Origin: an uncultured Pseudomonadales bacterium
GTDB taxonomy: Bacteria > Patescibacteriota > Microgenomatia > UBA1400 > PJMF01
Reading direction: 5' to 3'
DNA length: 64,000 nt
NCBI GenBank assembly: GCA_964583795.1
Contig: CAZOWX010000001.1
Location: 30,569 to 94,568, forward strand
Shown here: in pieces, positions 1 through 27,704 of the stretch
Layout of the letters: each line of letters starts with the position of its first letter
Numbering within the stretch: position 1 is the first letter of the stretch
Position numbers and translations under genes: made by a program
The notes under the pieces: generated by a model
What the model saw: the letters and a program-made list of their open reading frames with translations, nothing else
The model's database searches: none
What the model was told of the DNA's origin: nothing

Positions 1-1
1 C

Positions 2-880
2 AAAACAGCTCACATTGCTATCATTATTCTCCACTACAACGCACCAAAGTTTACGCTCGAGTGTTTACGTTCACTTGAGAATTTGAGTACAAAATATACC
101 CAGTTTAGTGTGATCGTCGTTGATAACTTTTCTCAAGAAATTTTTGCACAACCAAAAACAAGCTATGAACTAAAAGTCCTGCGAACGGATCAGAATCTTG
201 GATTCACTGGCGGAAATAATGTGGGAATTCGATATGCTTTTGAACATCTAAACCCTGATCACATTCTCCTTCTCAATAATGACACTACCGTGTCACCTGA
301 TTTTCTTGACAAGCTGGTTGGGTTTGCACAGACTCATACAAAGGTTGGAGCCATCACTCCAAAAATTTACTTTGAAAAAGGGTGCGAGTTTCACAAATCA
401 CAGTATACACATGATGAACTGGGCAAAGTCATTTGGTTTGCCGGTGGTAGCATTGACTGGCGAAATGTTTACGGCTTTCATCGCGGAGTTGATGAAGTTG
501 ATCGGGGACAATTTGATCTCCCCGTTATAGAGCGCTCGGAAAAGCAGATGCCCTACTATGGCTACCAAACGATGGACTTCGCTTCTGGTTGCTGTGTTTT
601 GATTCCTGCCGCAGTTTTAAAACAAGTTGGTTTGTTCGATGAATCGTATTTTTTATATTGGGAAGATGCTGATTTAAGTATGCGCATTCGCCAAGCTGGT
701 TTTCAGCTGTATTTCTGCCCTCAATCAGTCATTTGGCATAAGAATGCAGGCTCTACTGGTGGATCTGGTTCGAAACTGCAGCAGTATTACCAAAAACGTA
801 ATCGACTGAAGTTTGCACTCAAGTATGCTCCCCTTCGATCAAAACTAGCTGTTCTCAAACAATCCTTGTTAAATAGGTAA
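2..880 (+). CDS. Glycosyltransferase family 2 (5'-partial; the reading frame is open to the window edge)
   Basis: The frame is open from nt 2 (…KTAHIAIIILHYNAPKF…). GT2 hallmarks are VVDNFS, GGNNVGIRYAF, LLLNNDTTV and the C-terminal YWEDADLSMR motif. Confidence 0.8.
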   Translation, partial: KTAHIAIIILHYNAPKFTLECLRSLENLSTKYTQFSVIVVDNFSQEIFAQPKTSYELKVLRTDQNLGFTGGNNVGIRYAFEHLNPDHILLLNNDTTVSPDFLDKLVGFAQTHTKVGAITPKIYFEKGCEFHKSQYTHDELGKVIWFAGGSIDWRNVYGFHRGVDEVDRGQFDLPVIERSEKQMPYYGYQTMDFASGCCVLIPAAVLKQVGLFDESYFLYWEDADLSMRIRQAGFQLYFCPQSVIWHKNAGSTGGSGSKLQQYYQKRNRLKFALKYAPLRSKLAVLKQSLLNR

Positions 881-997
881 CAGAATACCAGATAGTGACT
901 CAAGCACTCAGCAACCAAACGTCACATCAACATTGTTTTGCGTTCCCTCTACATACTGTCACTCCTATGCCATATACTAACGTAAAGTAGTGTTAGA

Positions 998-1834
998 ATG
1001 AAAGATATGGAAAAACTTCCCATCACTGTTGTAGTTCTGACGAAAAATGAAGAACAAATGATAGTGAACTGTATCGAGACAGTACAATGGTGTCAAGAAA
1101 TCGTGGTCATCGATAGTCAATCAACTGACTCAACTGCGGCCCTTGCAAAGAGAGCTGGAGCTATCGTGTACACCACTGATAAAGATTCATTTGCAGAGCG
1201 ACGAAACTATGGCCTTACCAAAGTTCGCACTCCTTGGGTGTTTTATCTTGATGCTGATGAGCGAGTCACTCCAGATCTGATGATGGAAATTAAGTCAGCA
1301 ATACGTGATGGGTCAATCAACGCGTTACGCCTTCATCGACATAATTATCACTATGGGAAAATGATGAACTATGGAGGATGGGAAAAAGATCAGTTAGTCC
1401 GCATTTTTCGCACAGAAGCACTTACTACATGGAGCGGAAAAGTGCACGAGTCCGCCCAATTCTCAGGTCAAGAAAAACTTCTCAAAGCATCACTCGTTCA
1501 TCTCACGCATCGAAATATGGTCGAGGGCTTATACAAAACAATCTCTTGGACACATGATGAGGCACAGCTTTTATTTGAAGCCCATCACCCTCCAGTAACT
1601 CGATTTACTCTGCTTCGAAAAACAATCATGGAGTTTTTACGCCGAGCGTTTTTTTGGCATGGTAAAAAAGATGGCGTAGAAGGATGGATAGAAGCAATGG
1701 TTCAAGCCATGAATAAATTCATCGTGTATGAACAACTTTGGGAGCTACAACAAACCCCATCACTCTACGAAAAATACCAAAAACTAGACGAAGATATAAT
1801 CCGTCAGTGGGAAAACCAAGTCGATCATTCATGA
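998..1834 (+). CDS. Glycosyltransferase family 2
   Basis: N-terminal PITVVVLTKNEE…VVIDSQSTDST…YLDADE is a GT2 Rossmann/DxD arrangement of the LPS-core/WaaE-like type. Confidence 0.75.
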   Translation: MKDMEKLPITVVVLTKNEEQMIVNCIETVQWCQEIVVIDSQSTDSTAALAKRAGAIVYTTDKDSFAERRNYGLTKVRTPWVFYLDADERVTPDLMMEIKSAIRDGSINALRLHRHNYHYGKMMNYGGWEKDQLVRIFRTEALTTWSGKVHESAQFSGQEKLLKASLVHLTHRNMVEGLYKTISWTHDEAQLLFEAHHPPVTRFTLLRKTIMEFLRRAFFWHGKKDGVEGWIEAMVQAMNKFIVYEQLWELQQTPSLYEKYQKLDEDIIRQWENQVDHS

Positions 1835-3894
1835 AAAACAAACGCTTGAATATCTGTATTTACTCTCCATACATGCCCGATCACTTTGGCGGTGGAGAGC
1901 GTTATGTACTGAGTGTCGCTGAGTTTTTGGCAAGAACCCACCACGTAAGTATCGCGCTGTCCACAAACGACTTAACCAAAGAAAAAATTGCCATTATTCG
2001 ACAACGGTATCAAGATTTTTTCCAACTCAACTTGAATCATATTAAATTCATTGCCTCACCGCTTGGTCCAGGTCATTTTGTACAAAAACTACTCTGGACG
2101 AAACAATTTGATGTACTGTATTACTTAACAGATGGCAGTTTATTTTTTTCGCTCGCGAAGCGAAATGTGTTACACATCCAGTTCCCGTTTACTCACCACA
2201 TGAGCGGGTTTCTAAACCGCATAAAGCTGAAAAATTGGAATGTACGCAATACAAACTCACAATTTACAAAAGATGTCATTGAACGCAACTGGAAGACCGC
2301 TATTCAATACGTGCATACTCCATATGTTGATACTCAAATTTTTAGACCAGCACATAAGAAAGAAAAAATTATTCTCAACGTCGGACGATTTTTTAGCCAC
2401 TTACATACTAAGCGGCAAGATATTTTGGTAAAGGCATTTAAAAACTTAACAGAGAAGTATCCTCAACACATGAAAGGGTGGAAGCTGGTACTCATTGGTG
2501 GCGTTGAAGATGAAATTTATGCTAAAAAAATAGCCAATCTAGCAAAAGATTTGCCGATTAAAATCATTCATAATGCTTCTGCTGAAACTCTAAAAAGCTA
2601 CTACTCACTCGCACAAATCTACTGGCATGCTACCGGCTTTGGCGTCGACGAGTTTATTCATCCCATGTTTGTTGAGCACTTTGGCATTTCCACGATCGAA
2701 GCAATGGCGAGTGGAGCTATTCCCATCGTAATAAACAAGGGCGGACAAAAAGAGTTGGTGGAACATGGTGTTAATGGCTTTTTATGGAATGAAATTGAAT
2801 CACTTGAGGAAAGAACCATTGCCTGTATCCGTCAAGAAGTCGATTGCGAAGAGTTACAAGAAAAAGCTCGTAGAAGTGTCCTGCGATACTCTCCATCACA
2901 GTTTTTTTCAACATTAAATGCAATGATTGGCTCAAATCAGCCAATTCCAAGTGACATTTCGGGTGAAGTTTCAGTGATTATTCCCACATTTAATGGTAAA
3001 AAGCTTTTGGAAAAAAATATCTCAAGTATTTTTGAATCAATGCGAACTGGTGACGAACTCGTCATCGTCGATGACGCAAGTAACGATGACACTGTTGACT
3101 GGTTACAATCAGAGTTTTCATTGAGTAAAAATGAAGATCGGGCAGAATTTGACGAGTTTGTTTTTGATGGAACATTTGAGAAAAAAAACAAAAAAATTTT
3201 GATCAAATTAATTCAAAATAAAACGAATCTTCGATTTGCGGCTAGTTGTAACAAAGGCGTTAAACTCAGCACACATGAGCTGGTGTTTGTCGTGAATAAC
3301 GACGTTAAACTGAAATCAAATACGTTAACCACGCTCGTTCCATATTTTTTGAATCACAACGGGCAAGCGCATCAGATATTTGGAATCGGTTGCTTGGAGG
3401 AAGAACGAAAAAAAGGAAAGATAGAGTATTCTGGCAAAAACAGCCTCTGGTTTGAGCGTGGGCTATTTGTTCACTCAAAAGCTTCTGAAATGATTACTGG
3501 AGAGACAGCTTGGGTGAGTGGCGGCAGTGGGTTGTTTAGTAAAGCAAAGTGGCAAGAGCTTCAGGGGTTTGACAGACGTTTTTATCCTGCCTACTGGGAG
3601 GATATTGATCTTTCTGCTCGAGCGAAGGAAAGAGGCTGGCAAGTACTGTTTGATGCTGAGGCTGTAGTCGAACACCATCATGAATCCACAAACCAGACTG
3701 CCTTTGGCCAAGAGAGAATTAACCAGATGTCATTTCAAAATGGAATGTTGTTCATGTGGATACATACAAATTTTGTTCAAAAACTACAATTTTTGGCTTG
3801 GTTGCCATACCACCTCGTTATTACTAATAGGCGCTCTCATGGGGCTTTTTTGCACGGCTTATTAAGGCTTTTATTGAAAAACTCTCAATCATAG
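1831..3894 (+). CDS. Bifunctional glycosyltransferase: N-terminal GT4 (GT-B) domain fused to C-terminal GT2 domain
   Basis: The start was moved to the internal ATG at 1831 (MKNKRLNICIYSPY…), which forms an ATGA overlap with the upstream stop. The N-terminal half has the GT4 EHFGISTIEAMASGAIPIV motif. The C-terminal half has GT2 motifs (VSVIIPTFNG…LVIVDDASNDDT…YWEDIDLSARA). Confidence 0.75.
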   Translation: MKNKRLNICIYSPYMPDHFGGGERYVLSVAEFLARTHHVSIALSTNDLTKEKIAIIRQRYQDFFQLNLNHIKFIASPLGPGHFVQKLLWTKQFDVLYYLTDGSLFFSLAKRNVLHIQFPFTHHMSGFLNRIKLKNWNVRNTNSQFTKDVIERNWKTAIQYVHTPYVDTQIFRPAHKKEKIILNVGRFFSHLHTKRQDILVKAFKNLTEKYPQHMKGWKLVLIGGVEDEIYAKKIANLAKDLPIKIIHNASAETLKSYYSLAQIYWHATGFGVDEFIHPMFVEHFGISTIEAMASGAIPIVINKGGQKELVEHGVNGFLWNEIESLEERTIACIRQEVDCEELQEKARRSVLRYSPSQFFSTLNAMIGSNQPIPSDISGEVSVIIPTFNGKKLLEKNISSIFESMRTGDELVIVDDASNDDTVDWLQSEFSLSKNEDRAEFDEFVFDGTFEKKNKKILIKLIQNKTNLRFAASCNKGVKLSTHELVFVVNNDVKLKSNTLTTLVPYFLNHNGQAHQIFGIGCLEEERKKGKIEYSGKNSLWFERGLFVHSKASEMITGETAWVSGGSGLFSKAKWQELQGFDRRFYPAYWEDIDLSARAKERGWQVLFDAEAVVEHHHESTNQTAFGQERINQMSFQNGMLFMWIHTNFVQKLQFLAWLPYHLVITNRRSHGAFLHGLLRLLLKNSQS

Positions 3895-3935
3895 TACCAG
3901 ATAACACTATAACTTTGGTAAAATAACACTTATCT

Positions 3936-5570
3936 ATGACTCAGCTACTCAAGAGATACTCTTTTGGATTAATGTTTATTGCTATTATCTGTATCGCTAC
4001 TGTGCTTCGCCTCTATAAGCTTGACCAAGTCCCGTCTGGCATGAGCTGGGACGAAGCAGCAATTGGCTACAATGGCTACGCTATCTGGACTGTGCATCGT
4101 GACGAGTGGTTACATTTTATGCCATTTTCGTTTAAATCATTTGGGGATTTCAAGGCTCCGTTTGCTATCTATTTAAACGGAATATTTACAGTACTTTTCG
4201 GACTACAGCTTTGGGTAATACGTCTACCATTCGTAATTGCTGGTGTCGCAAGTATCATCGGAATGGCATGGTTGATTCATCTGTTGTTTCAAGTATTTCC
4301 ATTTCGTCAGGAAAATCAAAAAAACGCTTCTCAACTCACAGTTCTCGGGATTGCTTTCATCATCACGACTTCACCATGGCACATCTTTTTTACTCGGGCA
4401 GGATTTGAATCAGGTATGGCGATGGGCTTTATGATTTGGGGTATGTGTTTCTTTTTGCAAAGTCTCCACACTCAATCAAAACGTTTTTTATTTGTGGGTT
4501 TGAGTGTAATCAGTTTCGTATTGGGCCTGTATACCTATCACAGTGCTAAAATCTTTTTACCAATTTTTTTTGTTGTTCTTTTTGCCTTTTTCTTTCAATC
4601 AATCAAAAAACATTTCGCTGTCTATAGCTTTGGACTCATTTTCGGAATCATATTGCTGACACCACTCGTGTATGACTCGGTGCTTGGTCAGGGTACAGAA
4701 CGGTTTTCTCAAACTTCGTTATTTAGCAATCAAAAGTTGACCTCAACTGAAAAATTGACAACTTTTGTCAGTAACTATGCTCACCAATTTTCACCAGCTT
4801 TTTTGTTTGCTGGAGAAACAACCACACTTCGACATGGAGATGGGCACTGGGGAGTGTTGTTTTTAACCGATGGATTGTTGCTGATAGCGACAACTATCTG
4901 GTTTATTCTCCTTTCTGTATCGAAAAAAGCTGCTCGGTTTTCCTCTCCACTATCCAAAATCTACCTATTGGGAGTTTCATGGTTTTTAATCGGTTTGTTG
5001 CCAGCAGCAATCGGAATGGAAATTCCTCATGCCAACAGAGCATTATTAAGTTACCCAGGTTTTCTGATCATCGAAGCATTGGGAATATTTTTCCTACTGG
5101 AGAAACTTACTGCAAGTAGTAAACCAACAGTAAAACTTGTTGTTCAGGCACTATTAGGAACTGGATTCATGCTTCATGTTTTTTTTGTCGTGTCGTTTAC
5201 TCATGATTACTTTTCCAAATACTCGCTCGACTCAGCTGAGGCTTTTCAGTACGGTTACAAAGAGGTATTTGATTACGTTTTACCTCGCGAATCACAAGTT
5301 GAGAAAGTATTAATCACTTCTAAATATGGCCAACCGTACATTTACACATTGCTGTATCGCCACACCAATGCCATTTTGTATCACGGTGGGGCTCTGAGCA
5401 AATATGAGTACCCCGATACGGTCAATATCGGCGATGTGATTCGTAAAAACGCTATTGTTGTTGCAACCCCTGAAGAACTTGATCCATCTATTGCTGATCA
5501 ACTTATTCTTGCTCCAAGTGGAGAAGTTCGGTTTGTGATTATTAATACGGCAGAGCATCCAAGGCTATGA
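3936..5570 (+). CDS. GT-C membrane glycosyltransferase, PMT_2/ArnT-like (GT39/GT83-type), paralog 1 of the tandem array
   Basis: Polytopic membrane protein. The loop-1 acidic motif WDEAA, FKSFGDFKAPF, RLPFVIAGV and EIPHANRALL are shared with the three downstream paralogs. Confidence 0.75.
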   Translation: MTQLLKRYSFGLMFIAIICIATVLRLYKLDQVPSGMSWDEAAIGYNGYAIWTVHRDEWLHFMPFSFKSFGDFKAPFAIYLNGIFTVLFGLQLWVIRLPFVIAGVASIIGMAWLIHLLFQVFPFRQENQKNASQLTVLGIAFIITTSPWHIFFTRAGFESGMAMGFMIWGMCFFLQSLHTQSKRFLFVGLSVISFVLGLYTYHSAKIFLPIFFVVLFAFFFQSIKKHFAVYSFGLIFGIILLTPLVYDSVLGQGTERFSQTSLFSNQKLTSTEKLTTFVSNYAHQFSPAFLFAGETTTLRHGDGHWGVLFLTDGLLLIATTIWFILLSVSKKAARFSSPLSKIYLLGVSWFLIGLLPAAIGMEIPHANRALLSYPGFLIIEALGIFFLLEKLTASSKPTVKLVVQALLGTGFMLHVFFVVSFTHDYFSKYSLDSAEAFQYGYKEVFDYVLPRESQVEKVLITSKYGQPYIYTLLYRHTNAILYHGGALSKYEYPDTVNIGDVIRKNAIVVATPEELDPSIADQLILAPSGEVRFVIINTAEHPRL

Positions 5571-7255
5571 TATCGAAACTTATGACTCGCCATCACCTCG
5601 TTATTGTTAGTATCTTGTTGATCAGTTTTGCCCTACGGGTCGTCAATCTACAACATCTCCCTCCATCACCATATTGGGAAGAAGTCGCTTTAGGATATGA
5701 CGCGTATAGTATTTTAAAAACTGGAAAAGATCATCATGGTCACCTCTTTCCACTTGTGGCTTTTGAGTCGTTTGGTGACTACAAACCATCAGGATATTTT
5801 TATGCTATTGTGCCCTTTATAGCACTGATTGGTTTGTCGGTATTTGCAGTACGACTCCCATCAACTCTAGCAGGAGTTGCTATTGTCTACTTTAGTGGCG
5901 CGATTGCCAAATTACTGTTTCACTCTGAAATAGCGAAACAAGCGCATTCATGGAAAGCAATTTTACTTTCTCCACAAATACTGACCATGATTGTGACTGC
6001 ATTTTCACCGTGGGCCCTGCAATTTTCTCGGGGAGGGTGGGAAGTTAACTTAGCAACATGTTTTTTGACTATTGGTGTATACAGTGCACTACGAGCAGCG
6101 CAACAACTACAAACCAAAGGGCACTCAACAACTCTGGTGTTTCAATGGTACTTTATTGGCTTTATTTTCTTTATTCTCTCCACGTATACCTATCACTCGA
6201 CTCGGATCATTGCGCCACTCTTGGGGATAGTTACTGCAATCCCACTGCTCAAACAAGCCGCAAAATACAAACTCACCATTGCGGCGCTCCTATTTTTGGG
6301 AATTCTAACAATGCTCCCAATACTGTATCAAATAAAAGATCCAGCGGTCACTCATCGATTACAAGAAACTTCCGCTTTTACTACTCAACAAGAAATTGAT
6401 CAAAGTAATCAACTCATTACCCAATTTGGCTCAACTCGACTGGCAAGAATTGTGTTTCACCGTGACTGGTTTTACCTCAAAACATTTTTATCGAACTACT
6501 TTTCTCACTTTCGTCTCGATTACCTTTTTCTATCTGGAGATAACAATACTCGACATTCAACCCATTTTTTTGGATTATTTTTTCCAACTGACCTGGTTGT
6601 ACTTGCACTTGGAGTTATTGCGATGGTAACGCAATGGAAACACCGTTTTCATTTGTTGTGGATTTGGCTTGGTATCGGGCTCATCCCATCAGCTCTCACC
6701 AAAGATGTGCCACACGCTCTTCGCACCCTGCCAGTGCTGCCGGTATATATGGTAACTCTGGGAATTGGATTTACCTACTTATTTGAACAGCTGGCTAAAC
6801 TTCGTTTCTCAAAACTTCTTTTTGCAGGTATTAGCTTTATCGTTTTGGCTGAAATTATCGTGTATTGGCATTTTCACTTTACAGTATATCCAACCTATTC
6901 TTCCAAAGAATGGCAGTACGGCTATCAACAAATGATTGCGGCCATTAAAAGCAATCAACAAACAAATGAAGCAGTGTTTATTACCACTGAAAAAAAACGG
7001 CCAGCCATGTACTACTGGTTTTTTACTAAAACGGATCCCGTTTTAGTCCAAGCAGAAGAAAATACCGCTCAAAAAGATCAAGGAGAGTTTTTATCATTTC
7101 AAAATATCAAGTTCATTTTTCATTTATCAGGGAGTGAGCAAGGCCTAATTGCCAGCGGACCAGAGCAGCGAAAAAACTTTCCTAACGCTCAAGAGTTAGC
7201 AACCATTACCGATTTACAAGGCCATCCAATTTGGATTGTTTACCGGGCACAATAG
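5567..7255 (+). CDS. GT-C membrane glycosyltransferase, PMT_2/ArnT-like, paralog 2
   Basis: ATGA overlap with paralog 1. Motifs are WEEVALGYDAY, FESFGDYKPSGYFY, RLPSTLAGV and DVPHALRTLPV. Confidence 0.75.
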   Translation: MISKLMTRHHLVIVSILLISFALRVVNLQHLPPSPYWEEVALGYDAYSILKTGKDHHGHLFPLVAFESFGDYKPSGYFYAIVPFIALIGLSVFAVRLPSTLAGVAIVYFSGAIAKLLFHSEIAKQAHSWKAILLSPQILTMIVTAFSPWALQFSRGGWEVNLATCFLTIGVYSALRAAQQLQTKGHSTTLVFQWYFIGFIFFILSTYTYHSTRIIAPLLGIVTAIPLLKQAAKYKLTIAALLFLGILTMLPILYQIKDPAVTHRLQETSAFTTQQEIDQSNQLITQFGSTRLARIVFHRDWFYLKTFLSNYFSHFRLDYLFLSGDNNTRHSTHFFGLFFPTDLVVLALGVIAMVTQWKHRFHLLWIWLGIGLIPSALTKDVPHALRTLPVLPVYMVTLGIGFTYLFEQLAKLRFSKLLFAGISFIVLAEIIVYWHFHFTVYPTYSSKEWQYGYQQMIAAIKSNQQTNEAVFITTEKKRPAMYYWFFTKTDPVLVQAEENTAQKDQGEFLSFQNIKFIFHLSGSEQGLIASGPEQRKNFPNAQELATITDLQGHPIWIVYRAQ

Positions 7256-7267
7256 CAATTACATATC

Positions 7268-10517: not shown

Positions 10518-10521
10518 TTAT

Positions 10522-11313
10522 ATGATCTCAGTTGTACTCGCGACCCACAACGAAGAAAAAAACATACAGCGCTGTTTGGAAGCGGTAAAAAGTTTTGCTG
10601 ACGAAATCATTGTTGTGGATGGTGCGTCAACGGATCAGACAGTTACCATTGCCAAAAGATTTGGGGCTCAAATCACTTCAACTACCAATAAACCCTTATT
10701 TCATATCAATAAACAGATGGCTATGGATATGGCAAAAGGGGAGTTAGTCCTACAACTTGATGCCGATGAAGTCGTTGATAAAGAGTTAGCCAGATGTATT
10801 CAAAAAATTCACACGCAGATAATCAGTGAGAAGCTTTCATCCGCACTTCCGTCGGCCTGGTGGATTCGTCGTAAAAACTGGTTTTTATCACGTTTTTTAA
10901 CAAAAGGTGGACAATATCCTGATCCAGTGATTCGACTCTACCAAAAAGGCAAAGCGCATTTACCGCAAAAAGATGTGCACGAACAAATGCAAGTCGATGG
11001 AGAAGTGGGCTTTGCAAAGGGACATTTACTGCACTATAGTAGTCCAACTTTTAACGTTTATTTGCGCAAATGGAATGACTACGCCACACTAAAGGCCAAA
11101 GAACTACTGGCACAAAAACGCTCAATATCTGCTGGCAACGCGGTTTATTTTTTACTTTTTAAGCCTGTTATAACCTTTCTTTCCATATTCGTTCGTCACA
11201 AAGGATTTGTCGATGGCATACCAGGATTCATTTTTGCGTTGTATAGTGGGTTACTGTTTCCAGTTGCATACTTAAAGTATTGGGAGATGCTACAAAAAAA
11301 GAATCAAACATGA
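10522..11313 (+). CDS. Glycosyltransferase family 2
   Basis: Start taken at the internal ATG 10522 (MISVVLATHNEEKNIQRCLE…IIVVDGASTDQT…LQLDADE). This is the GT2 fold. Confidence 0.75.
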   Translation: MISVVLATHNEEKNIQRCLEAVKSFADEIIVVDGASTDQTVTIAKRFGAQITSTTNKPLFHINKQMAMDMAKGELVLQLDADEVVDKELARCIQKIHTQIISEKLSSALPSAWWIRRKNWFLSRFLTKGGQYPDPVIRLYQKGKAHLPQKDVHEQMQVDGEVGFAKGHLLHYSSPTFNVYLRKWNDYATLKAKELLAQKRSISAGNAVYFLLFKPVITFLSIFVRHKGFVDGIPGFIFALYSGLLFPVAYLKYWEMLQKKNQT

Positions 11314-15277: not shown

Positions 15278-15318
15278 ATACAAAATTCTTAACAAAAAAT
15301 CGATGATTGAGGAGCACT

Positions 15319-18975: not shown

Positions 18976-19052
18976 ACAAATACGCTTAACAAGCGTCTCA
19001 AAACAGATGAGTACTGTAAGTATAGCAGCTTGGAAAAGAGTTAGGGAAATAG

Positions 19053-20597: not shown

Positions 20598-21880
20598 GTG
20601 ACAGACCTCTTTGAAATAATAAATCTTCGTATGACTTCGCCCACGTACACCAAGGCAAGCAACGAGTTGACAACAATGTTTATGACTAAAACATCACGAA
20701 GTGAGTGATGAACAGCAAAAATGGTAATGACCTGAACAATGACAGCGAGAATACCCAAAATAGCAAATCGGCTTTTTTGTGCCACAAAGTATTGAGAGTA
20801 CAGATACATCAGCGAGTACATCGTCCCAAATAAGGCTGCTAACCAAACCAAATCTTGCACTTGTAAAAAACGTGACTTTGCAAATACCACTTGAATGACA
20901 AAGCTAGGAAACAATGAATAAAAAAACGTCATACCAAAACCAACAACGATAATCCCAACGGTCAGTAACAACAATATTGGTAAGGATTGGTGCTTGGTAT
21001 CACTCCCTGTAAAAAAAGTATAACCAACCGTTGATAAGGGAGAAACAGCAAAAAAAATAATCTTTCCTAGCAGTGATAATGATGCATACAACCCTACCAA
21101 ATCTCCGTCAAAAAATTTCTTGACCAAAATCACATCAACATTTGAGAGTCCCACTATGCCTAAGGTCGTAAAAAGCGGAATTAAAATTGATTTTCGCCGT
21201 AAGTACTTTCTTAATTGAGCAAATTGGAGATTTTTTACTTGGTATGATGTTTTCTTCCGAATCATTTTTCTACCAATAAAATAGCTCAACACATAACTGA
21301 GAATAAACCCAACAAATAACCAGAACAGCTCAGGACGAATGACAACGACCAACACAAACAACGCCAACTTAATAAATGCACTCACAATTGAAAATATTCC
21401 GACTGACCAAAAAGTCTTGTATGACTGCAACACTGAAGAATAAAAGCTGGTGAATATTCCGATAATTGAGCTGGCAATCACAAATGCCACCGCCATAATA
21501 CTCATATTCCCTTTGAAGTACATTAACACAGCGACAACTGAAACTAACAATAGTAATGCCGGTGCAAACGTCCATAACTCTGTTTCAAGCCAGCGCTCAA
21601 TTGACAAAGCGATGCTTGGTCTTCTCTCAGATGACTCTCTGCCAATACGCGCAACGACAATCAAACCAAATGCAGTCAGAGGAACACTGAAAAAAATCAG
21701 ATATGATAACGCGGTAGTGTACTCACCATACTCTGTTAATGTCAGGTAGCGAGCAACAAGCAAGTTATCCACATACGCAATCACACTGACTAACAAATTC
21801 GCTGCTGTAAAGATAAAACTTGAACGCAAAAATGAATTATTCAACAAGCGTTTCATCATAGCAAAGTAGTCCAAAGGCAA
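20594..21880 (-). CDS. Wzx-like flippase / polysaccharide biosynthesis membrane protein
   Basis: About 12 TM segments. LLVARYLTLTEYGEYTTALSYL is typical of the MOP flippase N-terminus. It has a 4-nt overlap with the downstream GT-C gene. Confidence 0.6.
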   Translation of the reverse strand: MPLDYFAMMKRLLNNSFLRSSFIFTAANLLVSVIAYVDNLLVARYLTLTEYGEYTTALSYLIFFSVPLTAFGLIVVARIGRESSERRPSIALSIERWLETELWTFAPALLLLVSVVAVLMYFKGNMSIMAVAFVIASSIIGIFTSFYSSVLQSYKTFWSVGIFSIVSAFIKLALFVLVVVIRPELFWLFVGFILSYVLSYFIGRKMIRKKTSYQVKNLQFAQLRKYLRRKSILIPLFTTLGIVGLSNVDVILVKKFFDGDLVGLYASLSLLGKIIFFAVSPLSTVGYTFFTGSDTKHQSLPILLLLTVGIIVVGFGMTFFYSLFPSFVIQVVFAKSRFLQVQDLVWLAALFGTMYSLMYLYSQYFVAQKSRFAILGILAVIVQVITIFAVHHSLRDVLVINIVVNSLLALVYVGEVIRRFIISKRSVT

Positions 21881-21883
21881 CGA

Positions 21884-23470
21884 TCAAGCCGCCGAGGCTG
21901 GTTTTACTTGTTTCGGGGAAAAGTCTTTGAGGTGACCTAAGAAACGCCACCCAGCCATAGCCAAAAACTTCACATCATCAAACGATCGGATGCTAGTAAT
22001 TTTTCTGAGCATAAACCGTGGTGTTAAAAATGACGAGTATAGTTTTTGGGTAAGCCGTAAGACGTCTTCTTGCGTCAGTGACGTTTTCATCACCGGCTTT
22101 CGCATGTCATAGTCCTCATAATCCTCACTCAATAACCACCCGTTCTCTTTGCATTCCTTCCAAAGTGGGGTACCTGGATAAGGGATAGTGATAGTCGCTT
22201 GAAGTGTATCAACATAGCCTTCGTCAAAGCACTCTTTAGCGAGATTAATCGTTCGCTCTGCGTCCTCATATGTTTCCCAGGGATATCCCAGCATTATCGT
22301 TAAATGCGGCTCTAATCCAGCTTTCTTGGCCATTTTCACACCTTCTTTAATTTTGGGAACTTGCATACCTTTCTCGAGCCGATCGAGCGTTTTTTGATTA
22401 CCTGACTCCATGCCATAGAGAATGAATCGAAAATTCGCTTTTCCCATTAGGTCATAATCATCTTGCTTTATGGCATTAAGCCGCATATTACAGCCATAGA
22501 TCACTTTTTTGTTGTATCCCGAGTCAATCATCATCTGGCAAAAATCACGAAGCGGCTTGCCAATCATGAATGTACCCGCATCATCAAAAATTTCTTTGAC
22601 GTGATAGTTATCAACTAAGTGCTTGACTTCAGCGAATAGTCGCTCAGGACTAAATCGACGATAACTCCCCAAGGGGTTGATTGTATGATCCCAAACACAA
22701 AAGGTACAACGATTCCACCAACAATCGCGCCCACTGTACATGTAGGTACCAGGATAATACTTATAATTTCCGTTGTAGTACGCGTAGTTTTCCCAATGTG
22801 TCAGGTCGCGATCGACGAATGGTAAATCATTCAAGTTGTGCTTTAAACTTGCAGGACCAGAGTTGTAATATATTTTGCCATTTACCCCTTTAACCTTATG
22901 AAATTTCTTACATGAAATGGACTTATCTGACGAACGCCACCACACTCCCGTTTCAAGCTCTGTTCCCTTGCTCAAGTGGTCAAGTAAGTTCACAATCACA
23001 AAATCATAATCACCACCGGTAATCAAGTAATCTACACTGCAATTGTCCATCGTCTCCTGAGGCATGAAGGTCACGTGATCACCAACTAAGACTACTTTAA
23101 GTTTTGGCATCGCTTTTTTTATTTTGTCGACAACTTTCCAATGTTTTTTAATCACTGGTGATTTTGACTCAATCATCAGTACATCTGGATTGAATTCCTT
23201 AAGTTCTGTGAGCCATTGATCATACGTTTGCTCAGCAGCAATACCGTCCATCCACTTAGTTTCATAACCATGCTCTTGTGCATTCGACGCTGCATACGCT
23301 GGAACCATCGGGTAAATATAGGTCTTTGCGTTAAAATACTGAAATTGTCGGTTTTGAGAAAGAAGCGGAACCCCTTTACTTGACGGAATTGGAGGATAAC
23401 CAAAAACAAACTTCAACTTTTTTATTGATTTTTGTTTCATCACTTTTTTTGTGGTTTTTTTCGCTGGCAT
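21884..23470 (-). CDS. Cobalamin(B12)-binding-domain radical SAM protein (class B rSAM, probable methyltransferase)
   Basis: The N-terminal Rossmann-like B12-type domain is KVVLVGDHVTF…ITGGDYDF. The radical SAM cysteine cluster is RDCWWNRCTFC. The class-B motif GMESGNQKTLDRLEKG is present. Confidence 0.65.
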   Translation of the reverse strand: MPAKKTTKKVMKQKSIKKLKFVFGYPPIPSSKGVPLLSQNRQFQYFNAKTYIYPMVPAYAASNAQEHGYETKWMDGIAAEQTYDQWLTELKEFNPDVLMIESKSPVIKKHWKVVDKIKKAMPKLKVVLVGDHVTFMPQETMDNCSVDYLITGGDYDFVIVNLLDHLSKGTELETGVWWRSSDKSISCKKFHKVKGVNGKIYYNSGPASLKHNLNDLPFVDRDLTHWENYAYYNGNYKYYPGTYMYSGRDCWWNRCTFCVWDHTINPLGSYRRFSPERLFAEVKHLVDNYHVKEIFDDAGTFMIGKPLRDFCQMMIDSGYNKKVIYGCNMRLNAIKQDDYDLMGKANFRFILYGMESGNQKTLDRLEKGMQVPKIKEGVKMAKKAGLEPHLTIMLGYPWETYEDAERTINLAKECFDEGYVDTLQATITIPYPGTPLWKECKENGWLLSEDYEDYDMRKPVMKTSLTQEDVLRLTQKLYSSFLTPRFMLRKITSIRSFDDVKFLAMAGWRFLGHLKDFSPKQVKPASAA

Positions 23471-23478
23471 ATGAGTCC

Positions 23479-24456
23479 TTATTGAGCTAAATGATTAGTA
23501 AACAAATACCCTTGAACAAATCGTAATCCGTACCAAAGATGTGTTACAAAAACCGATGCGATCGAAATAATCGCTTGTAATAAACTCTTCGATGATAAGC
23601 CAATCCATACTGCATTCGCAAGTAGGGCTATAGCATAGAACAACAATGGAAGTACTATCAACAAGCTCAACGACGGAAATAGCGCTAGAGAAGTAAGCAG
23701 TGTGGCGACATTCAACACCATCAATGTTGGTAGAAAATAAATAAGCTTTGCTGATGTTTTTGGTAAGACTCTCGCAAAAAACCCTCGGTGTATCCCAAAA
23801 TTGCCATTTTGTTTTAGATGTGCTCGCCACAATGGCCTGCGATGATGGTACACAATAGCCTTTGGCTCATACAAAATCTTCTTTCCCCTATGAATCAAAT
23901 CTAAACACAGTTTAGTATCTTCTCCTGGATAGTAATGCGAGTCGAAACCGCCAATGGCACTAAATTCTGAAGCTCTTACAAGTAGGTTCATGGAGGGATA
24001 ATCCTCTACGTACTGCTGCTTTCCTGGCAGAAATCGATAGGTATATGGTCCAGCACCAATGGGTGAAGCACTAACCCAACCACTAGCTGCTTCAGTCCAA
24101 TCAACTTTAGGGGGAGTAATGCCTGGACCCCCAACTGCTGCAATTTGCATATTGGTAAAGTGTGCTACAGCGCTTGTGAGCCAATCAGAACTTGGGTACG
24201 CATCATCATCGATAAAGGCAAATATCTGGCCGTGCGCATACTTGATAGCCAAATCTCTTTTTTGTGCCGGTCCAATTGGCCCTGTTTGAATATATTGAAC
24301 CCGATTCATTTTGGGCATACCGTTTTTTTGGTCGCAAAAAACAAACACTTCAGTTGTTGGATAGGTCAATTTTCCTATTTGCGAAAGGCACTCTTTGAGA
24401 TAGGAATTAACTGATCGCACTGGAATGATGATAGAAACGAGAGGTGTCTGGTGCAT
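23479..24456 (-). CDS. Glycosyltransferase family 2 with C-terminal membrane anchor
   Basis: Motifs are VSIIIPVRSVNSYLKECL…AFIDDDAYP…GEDTKL. Two C-terminal hydrophobic helices follow. Confidence 0.75.
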   Translation of the reverse strand: MHQTPLVSIIIPVRSVNSYLKECLSQIGKLTYPTTEVFVFCDQKNGMPKMNRVQYIQTGPIGPAQKRDLAIKYAHGQIFAFIDDDAYPSSDWLTSAVAHFTNMQIAAVGGPGITPPKVDWTEAASGWVSASPIGAGPYTYRFLPGKQQYVEDYPSMNLLVRASEFSAIGGFDSHYYPGEDTKLCLDLIHRGKKILYEPKAIVYHHRRPLWRAHLKQNGNFGIHRGFFARVLPKTSAKLIYFLPTLMVLNVATLLTSLALFPSLSLLIVLPLLFYAIALLANAVWIGLSSKSLLQAIISIASVFVTHLWYGLRFVQGYLFTNHLAQ

Positions 24457-24471
24457 AAAAACAGTTCAAAC

Positions 24472-25296
24472 TTAAATCAAGGGAATAATTTTTCTCTTCA
24501 CTTTTTCAGGCGGATGAAACCGGGAGTGCGGTAACTCGTAGTACTTCATTATTTTAAAGCGATAAAAAATCCCTAAAGTGTCGTAAAAAATCTTCCAAAT
24601 ACTTTTCCAGTCTGCAGCAGAACTGATGTTCGAAAAAGTATAATCTAACTTAATAGGAGCTTCGTAAATCCGATGAAATCCCAAAGACTTTGCTACAACC
24701 AACATCTCTAAATCACCAGCAAAACGTTTTTCAACCAAACGAGGCAAGGTTTTTTCCAACACCTTACGTTTAAAAACCTTAATCCCAGCTTGTGTATCTT
24801 TCACTTTGACCCCAAATAGGGTTTTCACAAAGTAGTAATACCCAATACTCAAGATTTTTCGCTGCAATGTATAATTTACCTGAGAAGCAGGGTGACGTTT
24901 TGACCCGACAATGACATCGGCGTTATACCACTTCATGTGTTCTAACAACATGCTAATCCCATCCGCCCCGATTTCCATACCAGAATCTAAAAACATCACG
25001 TGTTCTCCCAAAGCTTGACTCATCCCAAAACGAATGGCATACGATTTCCCTTTATTTTCCGCATACTCATACACACTCGCTTGCGATAATCGCCCATACT
25101 TCCCTCTAATGCTCGCATTACTCAACACACGAAAAGAGTTGTCATACTCTCCATCAACAACCACAATCACCTCATAGGAGTAACGAGTTCTTCCCAAGGT
25201 TTCAACTATTTGCTTCAAATTGTCAACAATAAATTTTTCTTGTTTATAGCAGGGGATAATTAAACTTAAAAATGGGGTTTGCTTCATGCTCAACAA
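24472..25296 (-). CDS. Glycosyltransferase family 2 (polyprenyl-phosphate glycosyltransferase / DPM1-GtrB-like)
   Basis: Motifs are LSLIIPCYKQEKFI…VIVVVDGEYDNS…FLDSGME. The size and layout resemble Dpm1/GtrB-type enzymes that load a lipid carrier. Confidence 0.65.
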   Translation of the reverse strand: MLSMKQTPFLSLIIPCYKQEKFIVDNLKQIVETLGRTRYSYEVIVVVDGEYDNSFRVLSNASIRGKYGRLSQASVYEYAENKGKSYAIRFGMSQALGEHVMFLDSGMEIGADGISMLLEHMKWYNADVIVGSKRHPASQVNYTLQRKILSIGYYYFVKTLFGVKVKDTQAGIKVFKRKVLEKTLPRLVEKRFAGDLEMLVVAKSLGFHRIYEAPIKLDYTFSNISSAADWKSIWKIFYDTLGIFYRFKIMKYYELPHSRFHPPEKVKRKIIPLI

Positions 25297-25306
25297 ATGT
25301 TGGTAA

Positions 25307-25753
25307 TCATTTAATACCAGATAAAATATTTTCTACCCACGCCTCCACCGATTGCATAATCACATCATCTGGAAATCCATCAATTTTTAGTGAGTCTCCC
25401 ACGATTTGTGCTTTTTTTGCAGTCAAGTCGTTATTCATCAATGAAACAACATTACAAAACACAGGATAAAAACTCTCTCCCAATCCATACACAGCACATT
25501 TCACGTTGCTCAGATCAGTTGATGAAGCTTTGAGTTGATCAAAAAAGGCCTGCGAAAAGTCATTGTACTCACCATCCCCCCAAGTTGAGGATCCAATGAA
25601 AACCAGTTCATACTGCGTTAATTGATCTACTTTGAGTTCAGACATATCAACCAAACTAACCTGATGACCTTTTTGTTTCAATAGTTCTTCAATTTTTTGA
25701 GCAACCATCATGGTGTTACCACCAATCGATGCATAGGTAACAAGTGTTTTCAT
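25307..25753 (-). CDS. Flavodoxin (short-chain)
   Basis: MKTLVTYASIGGNTMMVAQ carries the flavodoxin T/SxTGxT phosphate-binding signature. FIGSSTWGDGEY is the FMN-binding loop. Length is 148 aa. Confidence 0.75.
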   Translation of the reverse strand: MKTLVTYASIGGNTMMVAQKIEELLKQKGHQVSLVDMSELKVDQLTQYELVFIGSSTWGDGEYNDFSQAFFDQLKASSTDLSNVKCAVYGLGESFYPVFCNVVSLMNNDLTAKKAQIVGDSLKIDGFPDDVIMQSVEAWVENILSGIK

Positions 25754-25859
25754 ATCAAGCTATAAGTAATTATTAACTCACGTAATCGTACTTTAACTTA
25801 ACAGTATTTTTCTCAGATGAAAAGGTGCTAAATGCACTCAAATCGCTATCACTCGCGAC

Positions 25860-26846
25860 CTATTTTACTATAGCGCGAAAGTACTCTATAGTTTTTCGCA
25901 ATCCTTCTTCAAAATCAACTTTTGGCTCCCATTGCAACAACTCTTTTGCCTGCTGAATAACTGGTTGTCGGCGAGTGGGATCATCCGCTGGAAGAGGCAG
26001 GTACTCGACCTGAAGGGAATGTCCCACAACTCGCTCAAACATCTTTACTGTTTGCATGATAGTAAACTCTCCAGGATTCCCCAAGTTTACCGTTTTCCCA
26101 TTCCCAAGTGGGTGCAGTAGCAACGCTAAGATTCCGGACACTAAATCATCGACATAACAGTACGACCGTGTTTGTGACCCATCACCAAACACTGTTAGGG
26201 GAGTATCATGAAGTAACGATTGAACAAAACTGGGAATAATTCTTCCATCACTCAGGTCCATACGTGGACCATACGTATTAAAAATACGAACAATTCTCAC
26301 GTCTTGCTGAAAATCTCGCTGAAACACCCCGCAAATTGTTTCTCCCATCCGTTTTGCTTCGTCATAACACGAACGCTTCCCATTTGGGTTGACGTTTCCC
26401 CAATATGATTCACTTTGGGGATGAACCTGCGGATCACCATACACTTCAGATGTTGACGCAAATAAAAAGGGAATGCGTTGCTGTTTTGCTTGAATAAATG
26501 AAAGTAACTGGTGTGTCCCCATTGCGTTCACTAAATACGTTTCAACGGGATGCTCTTGATAACGCGGAGGGCTTGCGGGCGAAGCAAAATGCAAAATGTA
26601 ATCGATGTGTTGATCCTTTGGGATGTATTTGTCTGGATAATCCGAGACATCAGCTTCAGTGAAGATAAAGTGATCAGCAAAACTGCGCGTTAAAATGTCT
26701 ATATTCTGTCGTTGACCGGTAATAAAATTATCAGCACCAACAACTTTCCCTCCTTCTTGCATAACCGCTTCAGCTAAATGAGACCCAACAAATCCAGCAA
26801 CTCCAGTTATTAAAACAGTTTTGTTGTTAAAACGTGAAGAACTCAT
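25860..26846 (-). CDS. UDP-glucuronate decarboxylase / UDP-xylose synthase-like SDR (dTDP-glucose 4,6-dehydratase family)
   Basis: KTVLITGVAGFVGSHLAEAVMQEGGKVVGADNFITGQRQN closely follows the UXS N-terminus. The catalytic Y in YDEAKRMGE is present. Confidence 0.75.
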   Translation of the reverse strand: MSSSRFNNKTVLITGVAGFVGSHLAEAVMQEGGKVVGADNFITGQRQNIDILTRSFADHFIFTEADVSDYPDKYIPKDQHIDYILHFASPASPPRYQEHPVETYLVNAMGTHQLLSFIQAKQQRIPFLFASTSEVYGDPQVHPQSESYWGNVNPNGKRSCYDEAKRMGETICGVFQRDFQQDVRIVRIFNTYGPRMDLSDGRIIPSFVQSLLHDTPLTVFGDGSQTRSYCYVDDLVSGILALLLHPLGNGKTVNLGNPGEFTIMQTVKMFERVVGHSLQVEYLPLPADDPTRRQPVIQQAKELLQWEPKVDFEEGLRKTIEYFRAIVK

Positions 26847-26858
26847 TGATTGATTGTA

Positions 26859-27704
26859 TCATTGTGTCGGTTGAGTCGCCACCAAAGTTTGTGGCTTTGG
26901 CTTTAACAACGTTTTCCTATTTCGATACGTGTTGAACAAAAGATTCAAAAACAATAAAGGCATTAAATAGGGCTCTGTGAGGTGTAACCGCATAGCAAGT
27001 GGCACGAGAATTCCCAAAAAAGCTCCATAGACTATTTGTTCTTTTTGATTGACGGGTGAGGTCTTTGGTTCAACAACCATTACCAGTACAAAAAAGAGTA
27101 AGGTTCCCTCGAGTAGGATAAATGCAGGAGAACGATGAACTAATAGTACGTGGGAAAGTATAAATAATAGTAAGAATGTTCCAACAATAAACAACTTCCG
27201 ATATTTCCAAGCGACATAGAGTCCCACTGGAACAGTTAAAAACACGACAATACTCATTCCGCCACGTATAATCGGTATCCTTGGAGTGAAGCTTGCTCCC
27301 CACCAGACAGGTGAGAAATGAATCAAACTCACAATTGTTGCAGCAAGCGCTGCTGGATTAAAAATCGGGCCACTCGGTAAGCGAGCTACACGTTGCAAAA
27401 GTTCCACCAACACTCCAACACAAAAGTAAAAGTACCAAGGATAGTCAATGTAAAATAATAATGAAAGAATAAGGCAGGTAATCAACCGGTGTTCAAAACG
27501 GGTTTCTCTGGTGAATTTTCTCCATAACAACACACGATAGACAAAAAAAGCACCCAAACATATGCTCAGAAAATTTCTCACAACACTCAAAGCGTCGAAC
27601 AGAGAACTGGATGCAACGCTGAGTGTTGCCATCACAAACACAATTGTGAGATAGTAGAGTAATGTGCGTATAGGCAGGATGCGAATGGACATGGTATTAT
27701 TCAA
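26859..27704 (-). CDS. Polytopic membrane protein, function unknown (first gene of the long minus-strand glycan operon)
   Basis: About 8 hydrophobic segments. No motif recognised. Confidence 0.4.
   Translation of the reverse strand: MNNTMSIRILPIRTLLYYLTIVFVMATLSVASSSLFDALSVVRNFLSICLGAFFVYRVLLWRKFTRETRFEHRLITCLILSLLFYIDYPWYFYFCVGVLVELLQRVARLPSGPIFNPAALAATIVSLIHFSPVWWGASFTPRIPIIRGGMSIVVFLTVPVGLYVAWKYRKLFIVGTFLLLFILSHVLLVHRSPAFILLEGTLLFFVLVMVVEPKTSPVNQKEQIVYGAFLGILVPLAMRLHLTEPYLMPLLFLNLLFNTYRNRKTLLKPKPQTLVATQPTQ

Follow-up and report, generated by a model that had tools for sequence, protein, structure and literature searches.

What does a bacterium with a very small genome make with a dense run of glycosyltransferase (GT) genes, and do these genes form one system or several? 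The question is raised by a 64-kb stretch of DNA from an uncultured member of the Patescibacteria (assembly GCA_964583795.1, contig CAZOWX010000001.1, positions 30,569 to 94,568), which was analysed at its full length and is called the window below. It encodes 23 GT genes, and about 42 kb of it, or about two-thirds by the sum of coordinates, is glycan-related. A preliminary description made from the letters alone had read the window as one large locus combining enzymes like protein O-mannosyltransferases (PMTs) with Wzx/Wzy-type assembly of lipid-linked glycans. We propose that positions 1 to 26.8 kb hold most of a lineage-wide Patescibacteria envelope-glycan cluster, of the Pacebacteria/Woesebacteria type, that would encode a mixed-topology pathway with GT-C enzymes acting in series. 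We put the probability of this reading at about 0.55.

Two convergent glycan operons fill the first 26.8 kb

Genes were called from an open reading frame (ORF) listing together with Pfam, NCBIfam and PDB searches, and these reproduced nearly all of the calls previously made for the first ~27.7 kb. Two operons of closely spaced glycan genes, convergent with each other, take up positions 1-26,846. They encode six GT2 enzymes, a GT4-GT2 fusion, a GT4, six GT-C genes (seven GT-C modules) and two Wzx-like proteins, along with the epimerase GalE, a UDP-xylose synthase (UXS), a B12-binding radical S-adenosylmethionine (SAM) enzyme and a flavodoxin. The plus-strand block covers 1-16,257 and the convergent minus-strand block 27,704-16,244. 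Throughout both blocks, neighbouring genes share 4 nt or have gaps shorter than 120 nt, so each block looks like an operon. None of ten key proteins scored above the curated cut-off of an NCBIfam model, and therefore we do not assign precise enzyme names, except for UXS, which was identified through the PDB.

The GC content of the window is uniform (0.39-0.44), and the tRNA and Rfam scans returned no tRNA gene or Rfam match in it. A second assembly of the locus (Logan DRR783857 contig 21, referred to as L004; other loci are numbered likewise) is 99.49% identical without gaps, differing from the window at 35 positions over 6.9 kb. Thirty-one of these lie within 16373-17226, the C-terminal GT2 domain of a double GT2 on the minus strand, which shows eight amino-acid changes relative to L004; this concentration suggests recombination over a tract, or the diversification of a single GT domain between strains. 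By comparison, there were zero differences in the 2,886 nt of the double GT-C gene described below. Neither pseudogenised genes nor a lack of synteny in relatives, the two signs that had been named as speaking against a real cluster, was found: the ORFs are intact, all of their lengths agree with those of orthologues, and the gene order is kept across dozens of species. Together with the 23 GT genes and ~42 kb of glycan-related DNA, this order shows clustering beyond chance.

Four tandem genes form a GT-C subfamily of their own

At the centre of the plus-strand block are four adjacent genes for polytopic proteins, each with many hydrophobic segments: paralog 1 (3936-5570, 544 aa, 11 segments), paralog 2 (5567-7255, 562 aa), paralog 3 (7268-8947, 559 aa) and paralog 4 (8904-10517, 537 aa in the Logan gene call in L004; the listed ORF starts at 8862). 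The four are mutual paralogs with 24-29% identity (BLASTP E 9e-19 to 8e-60; 1e-28 to 7e-50 for paralog 1 against paralogs 2-4, and 9e-19 to 1e-28 for paralog 4). They had been described as four GT-C genes with PMT-like affinity. The Pfam PMT_2 threshold was passed by only one of them, paralog 3 (E 1.4e-7, 32.3 bits against a cut-off of 26.1), while paralog 1 had no Pfam match at all. The GT-C assignment of the three genes that lack a PMT_2 match is based on paralogy and structure; the fold is thus upheld, but the PMT-like affinity is not.

As shown by an AlphaFold2 model of paralog 2 (predicted local distance difference test (pLDDT) score 94.3, predicted TM-score 0.94), the protein has a polytopic N-terminal membrane domain with the GT-C fold and a C-terminal soluble domain of ~110 residues. 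The best Foldseek match was ArnT (5f15; E 1e-7, TM-score 0.54), followed by STT3, AglB, PglB, ALG9 and Pmt4. ALG12, ArnT and AglB scored at least as high as the PMTs, and AftB, AftD, AftA, EmbA and PimE matched as well. Identities in the structural alignments were 8-13%, and profile searches of the PDB with the two GT-C families of the cluster, the tandem one and that of the double GT-C below, gave no meaningful sequence match. The tandem-family profile retrieved no PMT at E<=1 and no ArnT. Pfam scans of 42 family members gave PMT_2 in nine and PMT (PF02366) in one; with this single PF02366 match and no PMT from the PDB, the family does not fall within GT39 by sequence. On the evidence of the model, the tandem proteins are GT-C glycosyltransferases in a subfamily of their own, no closer to PMTs than to GT-C enzymes that modify lipids or glycans. 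The family is large: 5,488 clusters at 50% identity were found at E<=1e-30 among 1.84 billion representatives.

The alignment of the 42 sequences has invariant E39, D55, R96, R155, E159, H330, H383 and R386. A W-(D/E)-E-(A/V)-A motif follows directly after the first transmembrane segment in all four paralogs (SWDEAA in paralog 1) and, by the secondary structure of the model, is placed in loop 1. The tandem paralogs therefore carry the acidic residues of the first extracytoplasmic loop that are a hallmark of GT-C enzymes. A W-x-D-E motif occurs at the same loop in the GT-C proteins encoded from 19053 and 29891. The WWDxG motif of oligosaccharyltransferases (OSTs) was found in none of the window's GT-C proteins. 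As GT-C enzymes, the tandem proteins would use polyprenyl-phosphate-sugar donors, for which indirect support comes from the GtrB/DPM1/ArnC-like GT2 encoded in the cluster.

A 961-residue protein joins two further GT-C modules

Further along the plus strand lies a gene for a 961-aa protein (12392-15277) with no Pfam match of its own. It had been called double GT-C-like, and both fold comparison and the Pfam matches of its homologues bear this out. The N-terminal half, which carries an outer beta domain, appears to be related to PF10131 (PTPS_related), and the C-terminal half appears to be related to PIG-V/Gpi18 (PF04188). When 30 homologues were searched, PF10131 was found in five (best E 4e-16), PF04188 in one (E 1e-11) and GT-C_AftD in two. 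Many homologues have precomputed PF10131 labels, and JGI calls one of them "Gpi18-like". The C-terminal half also resembles W-x-N-F-D-G-x-x-Y, which we take to be the PIG-V motif. PF10131 itself has been placed in the GT-C/PMT clan with its function unknown (PMC7801869). An AlphaFold2 model of the protein (pLDDT 81) matched ALG12, STT3, EmbB, Pmt4, PglB, ALG9 and PIG-U in Foldseek with a probability of 1.0, but at E values of only 2e-3 to 1e-1. In this model, two helices between the halves (520-543 and 559-584) would let the two catalytic loops face the same side of the membrane.

In L001 and L003, two neighbouring genes that overlap by 8-14 nt encode products (552-554 and 406-409 aa) with which the 961-aa protein aligns from end to end. 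Although split in the nearest relatives, the ORF is fused in ~17 other, more distant Patescibacteria proteins of 917-1033 aa. A second fusion lies at 1831-3894 on the plus strand, where a GT4 and a GT2 domain (Glycos_transf_1 E 8e-23, Glycos_transf_2 E 9e-17) share a protein of 687 aa. Its ATG at 1831 was chosen among in-frame start codons (the listed ORF starts at TTG 1738), and its orthologues are 685-688 aa long; it is fused in near relatives and two adjacent genes in most distant loci. Because the halves are separate elsewhere but fused here, both fusions argue for physical or functional coupling within each pair.

The cluster is conserved across a Patescibacteria lineage

Homologues of the cluster are almost all labelled Patescibacteria, Pacebacteria, Paceibacterota, Woesebacteria, Microgenomates, Roizmanbacteria or Beckwithbacteria, labels that we take to belong to the OP11/Microgenomates group (Pacebacteria now stand under the phylum Minisyncoccota at NCBI). 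Protein identity to even the nearest genomes is no more than 54-59%. The tandem GT-C family is encoded on 321 stretches in a collection that represents each species by one genome. Eighty of these loci were fetched and annotated by phmmer against the window proteins, and gene order was scored in the 47 with full 10-kb flanks. The order GT2-GT2-(GT4+GT2)-GTC1-GTC2-GTC3-GTC4-GT2-GT4-(PF10131+PIG-V)-GalE recurs at 35-59% protein identity; this canonical run was complete in 24 of the 47 loci, and 43 of them had at least three GT-C ORFs of the tandem family. The combination of a lipid-carrier route with many PMT-type enzymes had been thought unusual in a genome that otherwise looks minimal. It is indeed unusual for a small genome, but with 321 stretches encoding the family it is the norm for this lineage.

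Within the four-gene arrays, the position of a gene agreed with its paralog assignment in 39 of 44 cases, and the assignments had margins of 190-270 bits; paralogs 1, 3 and 4 of the window correspond to the first, third and fourth slots. Since array position predicts paralog identity, the four genes are old, non-redundant paralogs, and this indicates that they have distinct, conserved roles.

The enzymes around the array, all on the plus strand, are conserved to differing degrees. The first GT2 (2-880; Glyco_tranf_2_3 E 3e-17) and the second (998-1834; Glycos_transf_2 E 6e-15) each keep their slot in 44 of the 47 loci. Downstream of the array, a GT2 called at 263 aa (10522-11313, listed from 10456; Glycos_transf_2 E 3e-18), with two C-terminal hydrophobic segments (228-273), is kept in 32 loci and a GT4 called at 361 aa (11310-12395, listed from 11280; Glyco_trans_1_4 E 1e-22) in 31. 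The GalE-like epimerase (15307-16257) follows the double GT-C in relatives too; it matched Pfam Epimerase (E 7e-64) and GalE in the PDB (E 1e-47), and its 208 bits to the NCBIfam GalE model are below the cut-off of 262.

The cluster does not begin at position 1, as had been supposed. The first GT2 is truncated by the 5' edge of the window and lacks a few N-terminal residues: its frame is open from base 2, and the alignment begins at about residue 4 of the L001 and L003 orthologues. In near relatives, from which we judge the content beyond the edge, the cluster extends further upstream and there encodes two GT2 enzymes, Wzx and a PF10131-type protein. The apparent start is therefore an artefact of the window. 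Distant loci (~36% identity) keep a PF10131-like protein, a ~520-aa protein, three GT2, GT4, GT2, GTC1 and GTC2; by its position, the ~520-aa protein is a candidate counterpart of the 500-aa Wzx of L003.

Some taxonomic labels were out of place. In L006-L084, the title "uncultured Pseudomonadales bacterium" is given to many loci whose content is plainly that of Patescibacteria, and "Methylococcaceae" or "Limisphaerales" to single ones; these titles look like mislabels. One locus outside the Patescibacteria, L080 (CP011212.1, "candidate division TM6 bacterium GW2011_GWF2_28_16", 454077-475693), is labelled TM6 (Dependentiae) and has a rearranged partial cluster with one tandem-family GT-C, a PF10131-like gene, the GT2 trio, GT4/GT2 and several epimerases. 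It could be due to horizontal transfer or to a mislabelled genome.

A conserved triad and a variable module on the minus strand

The minus-strand operon meets the plus-strand one with three genes that were kept in all three of the close relatives L085, L086 and L087. The first encodes a 514-aa double GT2 with two GT-A domains (16244-17788; Glycos_transf_2 in two stretches, E 2e-27), whose orthologues have 50-69% identity and the same convergent position. Next to it are a Wzx-type flippase of the MOP family (17785-18975; at least eight hydrophobic segments) and, adjoining the flippase, a 514-aa GT-C of the PMT_2 family (19053-20597; E 3e-14, loop-1 motif FWVDEF) from a subfamily distinct from the tandem array. 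Beyond this triad the gene content differs among relatives. The locus is thus made up of a conserved core, to ~20.6 kb, and a variable module at 20.6-26.8 kb, a conserved-plus-variable layout that is typical of surface-glycan loci.

The variable module, all on the minus strand, starts with a ten-segment membrane protein (20594-21880) whose only counterpart among the three relatives is in L086. Two Wzx proteins had been proposed: the flippase of the triad is above the cut-off of Polysacc_synt (33.6 bits against 28.2), but this second protein is weakly Wzx-like and falls below it (18 bits, E 0.002). It is followed by a class B, B12-binding radical SAM enzyme (21884-23470; Radical_SAM E 2e-17, B12-binding E 6e-10), present in L086 and absent from L085 and L087. 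The best NCBIfam model for this enzyme was HpnJ (176 bits against a cut-off of 578), and the PDB matches were weak (AprD4, 9ccb). Where Cx3Cx2C is usual, its residues 250-258 form a Cx4Cx2C cysteine cluster (CWWNRCTFC), which the L086 orthologue has unchanged. A cobalamin-dependent enzyme in so small a genome also prompts one to ask how its cofactor is obtained. The flavodoxin (25307-25753; Flavodoxin_1 E 5e-28), encoded two genes away and also beside the radical SAM and GT2 genes in L086, is likely to be its reductant.

Two GT2 genes stand between them. The first (23479-24456; Pfam GT2 E 5e-11) has two C-terminal hydrophobic segments (236-283) and a best NCBIfam match, MftF-like, below the cut-off at 116 bits. 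The second (24472-25296) is the best candidate for a polyprenyl-phosphate-sugar synthase of the GtrB/DPM1/ArnC type. It matched GtrB (5ekp, E 1.5e-7) over residues 7-189, the whole GT-A domain, as well as DPM synthase (5mlz) and ArnC (9hwj); its best NCBIfam models (PgfS, ArnC and PpgS) were all far below their cut-offs. Look-alikes of ~225 aa are encoded upstream of the core in many loci.

The last gene of the module (25860-26846) encodes an extended short-chain dehydrogenase/reductase that had been called UXS-like. Its similarity to the human enzyme UXS1 is close and full-length (2b69, E 3e-91; 309 bits over residues 7-325, compared to 136 for the next family), and by this comparison it is clearly a UDP-glucuronate decarboxylase. 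It is absent from the module of L086, the closest of the relatives, which otherwise matches with the same Wzx-like protein, radical SAM enzyme, two GT2 and flavodoxin. A gene for UDP-glucose dehydrogenase (Ugd) was not seen in the window.

The operon continues with an RnfD/NqrB-like membrane protein (26859-27704, minus strand), previously counted as a glycan gene. It lies beside genes for a small FMN_bind-like protein, which has a Ser/Thr-rich N-terminal stretch, and an ApbE flavin transferase, and the same trio (26859-29147) is beside the cluster in L086. These three genes are probably an extracytoplasmic flavinylated redox module rather than part of the glycan set.

In place of this module, L085 has genes for a 1134-aa polytopic protein, a SAM methyltransferase, two epimerases and a GT4, and L087 has 989-aa and 846-aa polytopic proteins, one of them with an F5/8 type C domain, a methyltransferase and a GT2. 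The large proteins (L085 3476-6880; L087 4033-7002 and 1421-3961) have ~10-12 N-terminal hydrophobic segments and a big outer domain, with a C-terminal hydrophobic segment in the 989- and 1134-aa ones; one matched GT-C_AftD faintly (E 0.09). Possibly these proteins are additional enzymes of GT-C-like type. As candidates for Ser/Thr-rich acceptors they were rejected, being polytopic membrane proteins with big outer domains.

A candidate pathway and its likely acceptor

Starting from the gene content, the GT-C fold, the motifs, the synteny and the core-plus-module layout, we infer donors, the topology and order of the steps, and an acceptor as follows. The soluble GT2 and GT4 enzymes (2-3894, 10522-12395 and 16244-17788) would build a polyprenyl-linked glycan on the cytoplasmic face of the membrane, drawing on nucleotide sugars that are modified by GalE and, in this strain, also by UXS. 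The DPM1/GtrB-like GT2 (24472-25296), or the conserved upstream homologue seen in relatives, may charge polyprenyl phosphate with single sugars. Wzx-type flippases would then carry the lipid intermediates across. Outside the membrane, a fixed series of GT-C enzymes (the four ancient tandem paralogs, the PF10131-like and PIG-V-like pair that is fused here, and the PMT_2 enzyme) could extend, branch or transfer the glycan using polyprenyl-phosphate sugars. The variable module at 20.6-26.8 kb (radical SAM enzyme, flavodoxin, two GT2 and UXS) may serve to diversify the product.

As the most likely acceptor we favour a glycopolymer anchored in the membrane or the wall over a protein, because there are six ordered GT-C genes, no specific PMT affinity and no Ser/Thr-rich substrates nearby. 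We offer this as a preference and not as a demonstration.

Several observations weigh against the pathway. A priming phosphoglycosyl transferase was found neither in the core nor among the called genes of the three nearest relatives, and no gene for an LCP ligase, a sortase substrate or a lipid anchor was seen in the window. The candidate polyprenyl-phosphate-sugar synthase rests on matches with E ~1e-7 and no NCBIfam model above its cut-off. The functional steps are all drawn from homology at 8-13% identity in structural alignments, and the synteny counts from best phmmer matches and crude ORF calls within 10 kb on either side. Lastly, the DE motif of loop 1 is also a hallmark of PMTs, and does not discriminate between a glycan or lipid acceptor and a protein.

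The last point leads to the strongest competing explanation, that the locus is for protein O-glycosylation, the reading towards which the preliminary description leaned. Here the GT-C enzymes, acting like PMT, Pgf or TMTC proteins, would put polyprenyl-phosphate sugars onto Ser/Thr residues of S-layer proteins, type IV pilins or adhesins, with donors supplied by the cytoplasmic GTs and the epimerase. The Pgf operon of Streptococcus mutans is similar in that two polytopic membrane GTs are encoded together with a GT2 and an epimerase. In line with this, PMT_2 matches were obtained at 7268-8947, 19053-20597, 29891-31474 and 39993-41528 and in the nine family members noted above (the one PMT match points the same way), and the (D/E)E motif of loop 1 is PMT-like. 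Pilin glycosylation has also been predicted in bacteria of the candidate phyla radiation (CPR), though not experimentally tested (PMC11623550).

On the other hand, the tandem-family profile did not retrieve a single PMT from the PDB, and the structural scores of ALG12, ArnT and AglB are no lower than those of PMTs. PMT_2 (PF13231) is a broad model that also covers ArnT-type enzymes, and bacterial PMTs are normally single-copy; here six GT-C genes stand in fixed order. The large neighbours of the cluster in L085 and L087 are polytopic and include no obvious substrates, and the window encodes no Ser/Thr-rich secreted protein, which is a weak negative context. We consider protein O-glycosylation an unlikely explanation, but one to be taken seriously.

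Comparison with known systems

In the multi-component transmembrane glycosylation of Gram-positive bacteria (CsbB/GtcA/YfhO; GacI/GacJ/GacK/GacL), a GT-A enzyme makes a C55-P (phosphate)-sugar, and once a flippase has moved this lipid, a polytopic GT-C adds its sugar to a wall polymer on the outer side; a Wzx-type flippase, GacK, beside the GT-C GacL is a described variant (PMC8035078). The arrangement of the window, compared by arrangement alone, fits this scheme: flippase and GT-C are encoded together, as the conserved Wzx and PMT_2 pair (17785-20597) kept in L085, L086 and L087, and the GtrB-like GT2 is a candidate for the GT-A enzyme. In contrast to those systems, which have one GT-C each and decorate a finished polymer, the cluster has six GT-C genes (seven modules) in fixed order. 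It also has many cytoplasmic GTs and no recognisable backbone pathway (Tag/Tar or Rgp/Rml).

Serial GT-C enzymes that work outside the membrane from polyprenyl-phosphate sugars are found in mycobacterial and corynebacterial assembly of arabinogalactan (AG) and of lipomannan and lipoarabinomannan (LM/LAM), which uses EmbA/B/C, AftA-D, MptA-C, and PimE with Ppm1. AftB, AftD, AftA, EmbA and PimE are the members of this group that the modelled tandem GT-C matched, and the embCAB genes are themselves in tandem. The eukaryotic ALG and glycosylphosphatidylinositol (GPI) mannosyltransferase pathways follow the same serial logic. Unlike them, the cluster has no STT3/OST and no WWD motif, and at 8-13% identity the fold is shared while common descent of the pathways is not indicated.

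Lipid A modification by ArnT/ArnC (GT83) differs in that ArnA/B/D genes are lacking here and the family profile retrieves no ArnT by sequence; to our knowledge, these bacteria have no lipid A or outer membrane. With the PMTs (GT39: Pmt1/2/4 and the actinobacterial PMT) the proteins share the GT-C fold, the acidic DE-type motif of loop 1 and, for some members, PMT_2 matches. Unlike PMTs, they have no sequence-level match to a solved PMT and no MIR domain, and they occur as a multi-copy tandem array.

Other glycan genes in the window and the remaining alternatives

Three further glycan islands, all on the plus strand and called by Pfam, lie beyond the core. The first (29891-33841) has a PMT_2 GT-C (29891-31474) followed by two GT4 genes, and is separated from the core by the RnfD-like, FMN_bind, ApbE and GreA genes. 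The second (36173-41528) encodes a hexapeptide acetyltransferase of WcaF type (98 bits, below the NCBIfam cut-off of 192), a small membrane ORF, a GT2, a 610-aa Wzy_C protein (38161-39993) and a PMT_2 GT-C (39993-41528). The third (49463-59216) holds GT4, GT2, a small membrane ORF, GT4, a Lit-like gene, GT4, ManC, a Bac_transf priming phosphoglycosyl transferase (56425-57048, E 2e-59) and a DUF4012 protein. Five further GT4/GT2 genes had been counted at 49.5-59.2 kb; we find four (GT4, GT2, GT4 and GT4). The NCBIfam models EPS_sugtrans (231 bits) and GMP_PMI (301 bits) were matched below their cut-offs in this island. With ManC and a priming transferase, it is an ordinary pathway of the undecaprenyl-diphosphate type. 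The two small membrane ORFs (36763-37254 and 51802-52248) were checked as GtrA-type flippases and had no Pfam match.

The Lit-like gene (53457-54095), which lies between GT4 genes, matched PF07314, lipoprotein intramolecular transacylase (E 2.5e-14). The DUF4012 protein (57165-59216, 683 aa, one N-terminal hydrophobic segment) is encoded directly after the priming transferase, and in L070 a homologue lies no more than 10 kb from the cluster. A minus-strand block at 41530-48903 encodes phosphoglucose isomerase, a BadF-type ATPase, DUF1622, GH15, GH57 and a GT4/GT5 glycogen-synthase-like protein; it belongs to storage or central sugar metabolism and not to the envelope glycan, and its GT is not one to count with the surface GTs.

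A single Wzx/Wzy pathway across the window has also been considered: Bac_transf would prime, GT4 and GT2 enzymes build the repeat, Wzx flip it and Wzy_C polymerise or ligate it, and the GT-C enzymes would add only side branches. An initiating phosphoglycosyl transferase, ManC, Wzx (17785-18975) and a Wzy_C protein are all encoded in the window. The Wzy_C domain is common to polymerases, ligases and O-oligosaccharyltransferases of the PglL/PilO type, and the last of these would fit en-bloc glycosylation of pilin or S-layer. However, the components are 20-40 kb apart, with the priming transferase 29 kb from the core, and greA, ruvCAB, pgi and glycogen genes (GH57, GH15 and the GT5-like synthase) set the islands apart from the core. 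The Wzy_C protein is barely above threshold (34.9 bits against 31.7) and has no NCBIfam or PDB sequence match. No family match to a Wzz/PCP chain-length regulator was obtained in the Pfam scans of the window, and no LCP ligase was detected there. The core of relatives has a Wzx of its own, and neither a priming transferase nor Wzy was seen among their called genes, the distant loci being partly annotated. It is improbable, therefore, that one such pathway spans the window. The GT-C enzymes and lipid-carrier machinery of the preliminary description are indeed combined in the locus, but the Wzx/Wzy route is not contained in it, since the priming transferase (56.4 kb) and Wzy_C (38.2 kb) are in other islands. 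The window is better described as several glycan units on 64 kb than as one Wzx/Wzy megalocus.

Still less likely is an OST-like mechanism in which one GT-C moves a finished lipid-linked oligosaccharide onto protein, for N- or O-glycosylation as in archaeal Agl or Campylobacter Pgl. Some GT2 enzymes show weak NCBIfam similarity to AglJ and AglG, but there is no STT3 (PF02516) Pfam match, the soluble C-terminal domain is small (~110 residues), and we rejected the idea because the WWD motif is missing from the window's GT-C proteins. That the locus is a chimeric contig of a metagenome-assembled genome or is decaying, with the 961-aa ORF a frameshift fusion of genes that overlap by 8-14 nt in relatives, is effectively refuted by the uniform GC, the full-length ORFs, the same order in dozens of independent assemblies, the uninterrupted ORF in DRR783857 and the fused versions in other lineages.

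Implications for the Patescibacteria cell surface

We return to the serial GT-C pathway as our preferred reading. Its parts belong to known superfamilies and its mechanism has known analogues, and so it is not categorically new. The system had been suggested to be undescribed, and full-text literature searches, with subscription journals mostly outside their scope, returned no description of the cluster or of a GT-C expansion in CPR bacteria. The cluster adds two large, structurally unsampled GT-C families that are undetectable by sequence against solved structures.

The cell-surface composition of Patescibacteria is largely unknown, though these bacteria are thought to live attached to other microbes. 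Their genomes are generally described as small, about 1 Mb, and a cluster of at least 20 kb that is kept gene for gene in such genomes implies an important surface product. The interest of the locus is in this strict conservation, in the number of GT-C steps and in the handle that it gives on the CPR cell surface; in the cultivated Saccharibacteria, glycosylation has been called "unexplored" (PMC11623550). The named genes, a high-confidence GT-C model, invariant residues and two Rosetta-stone fusions are concrete handles.

The layout of a core with a variable module predicts strain-specific surface antigens. More speculatively, and with less confidence than in the pathway as such, an extracytoplasmic line of at least six GT-C enzymes, including the PIG-V-like one, might build a major envelope lipoglycan or wall glycopolymer with a strain-variable tip carrying xylose or a radical-SAM or methyl modification. 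If this is true, the variable tip could govern recognition by hosts or phages, and the locus would stand as the equivalent, in bacterial genomes shorn of most biosynthesis, of the ALG/GPI or mycobacterial LAM/AG logic.

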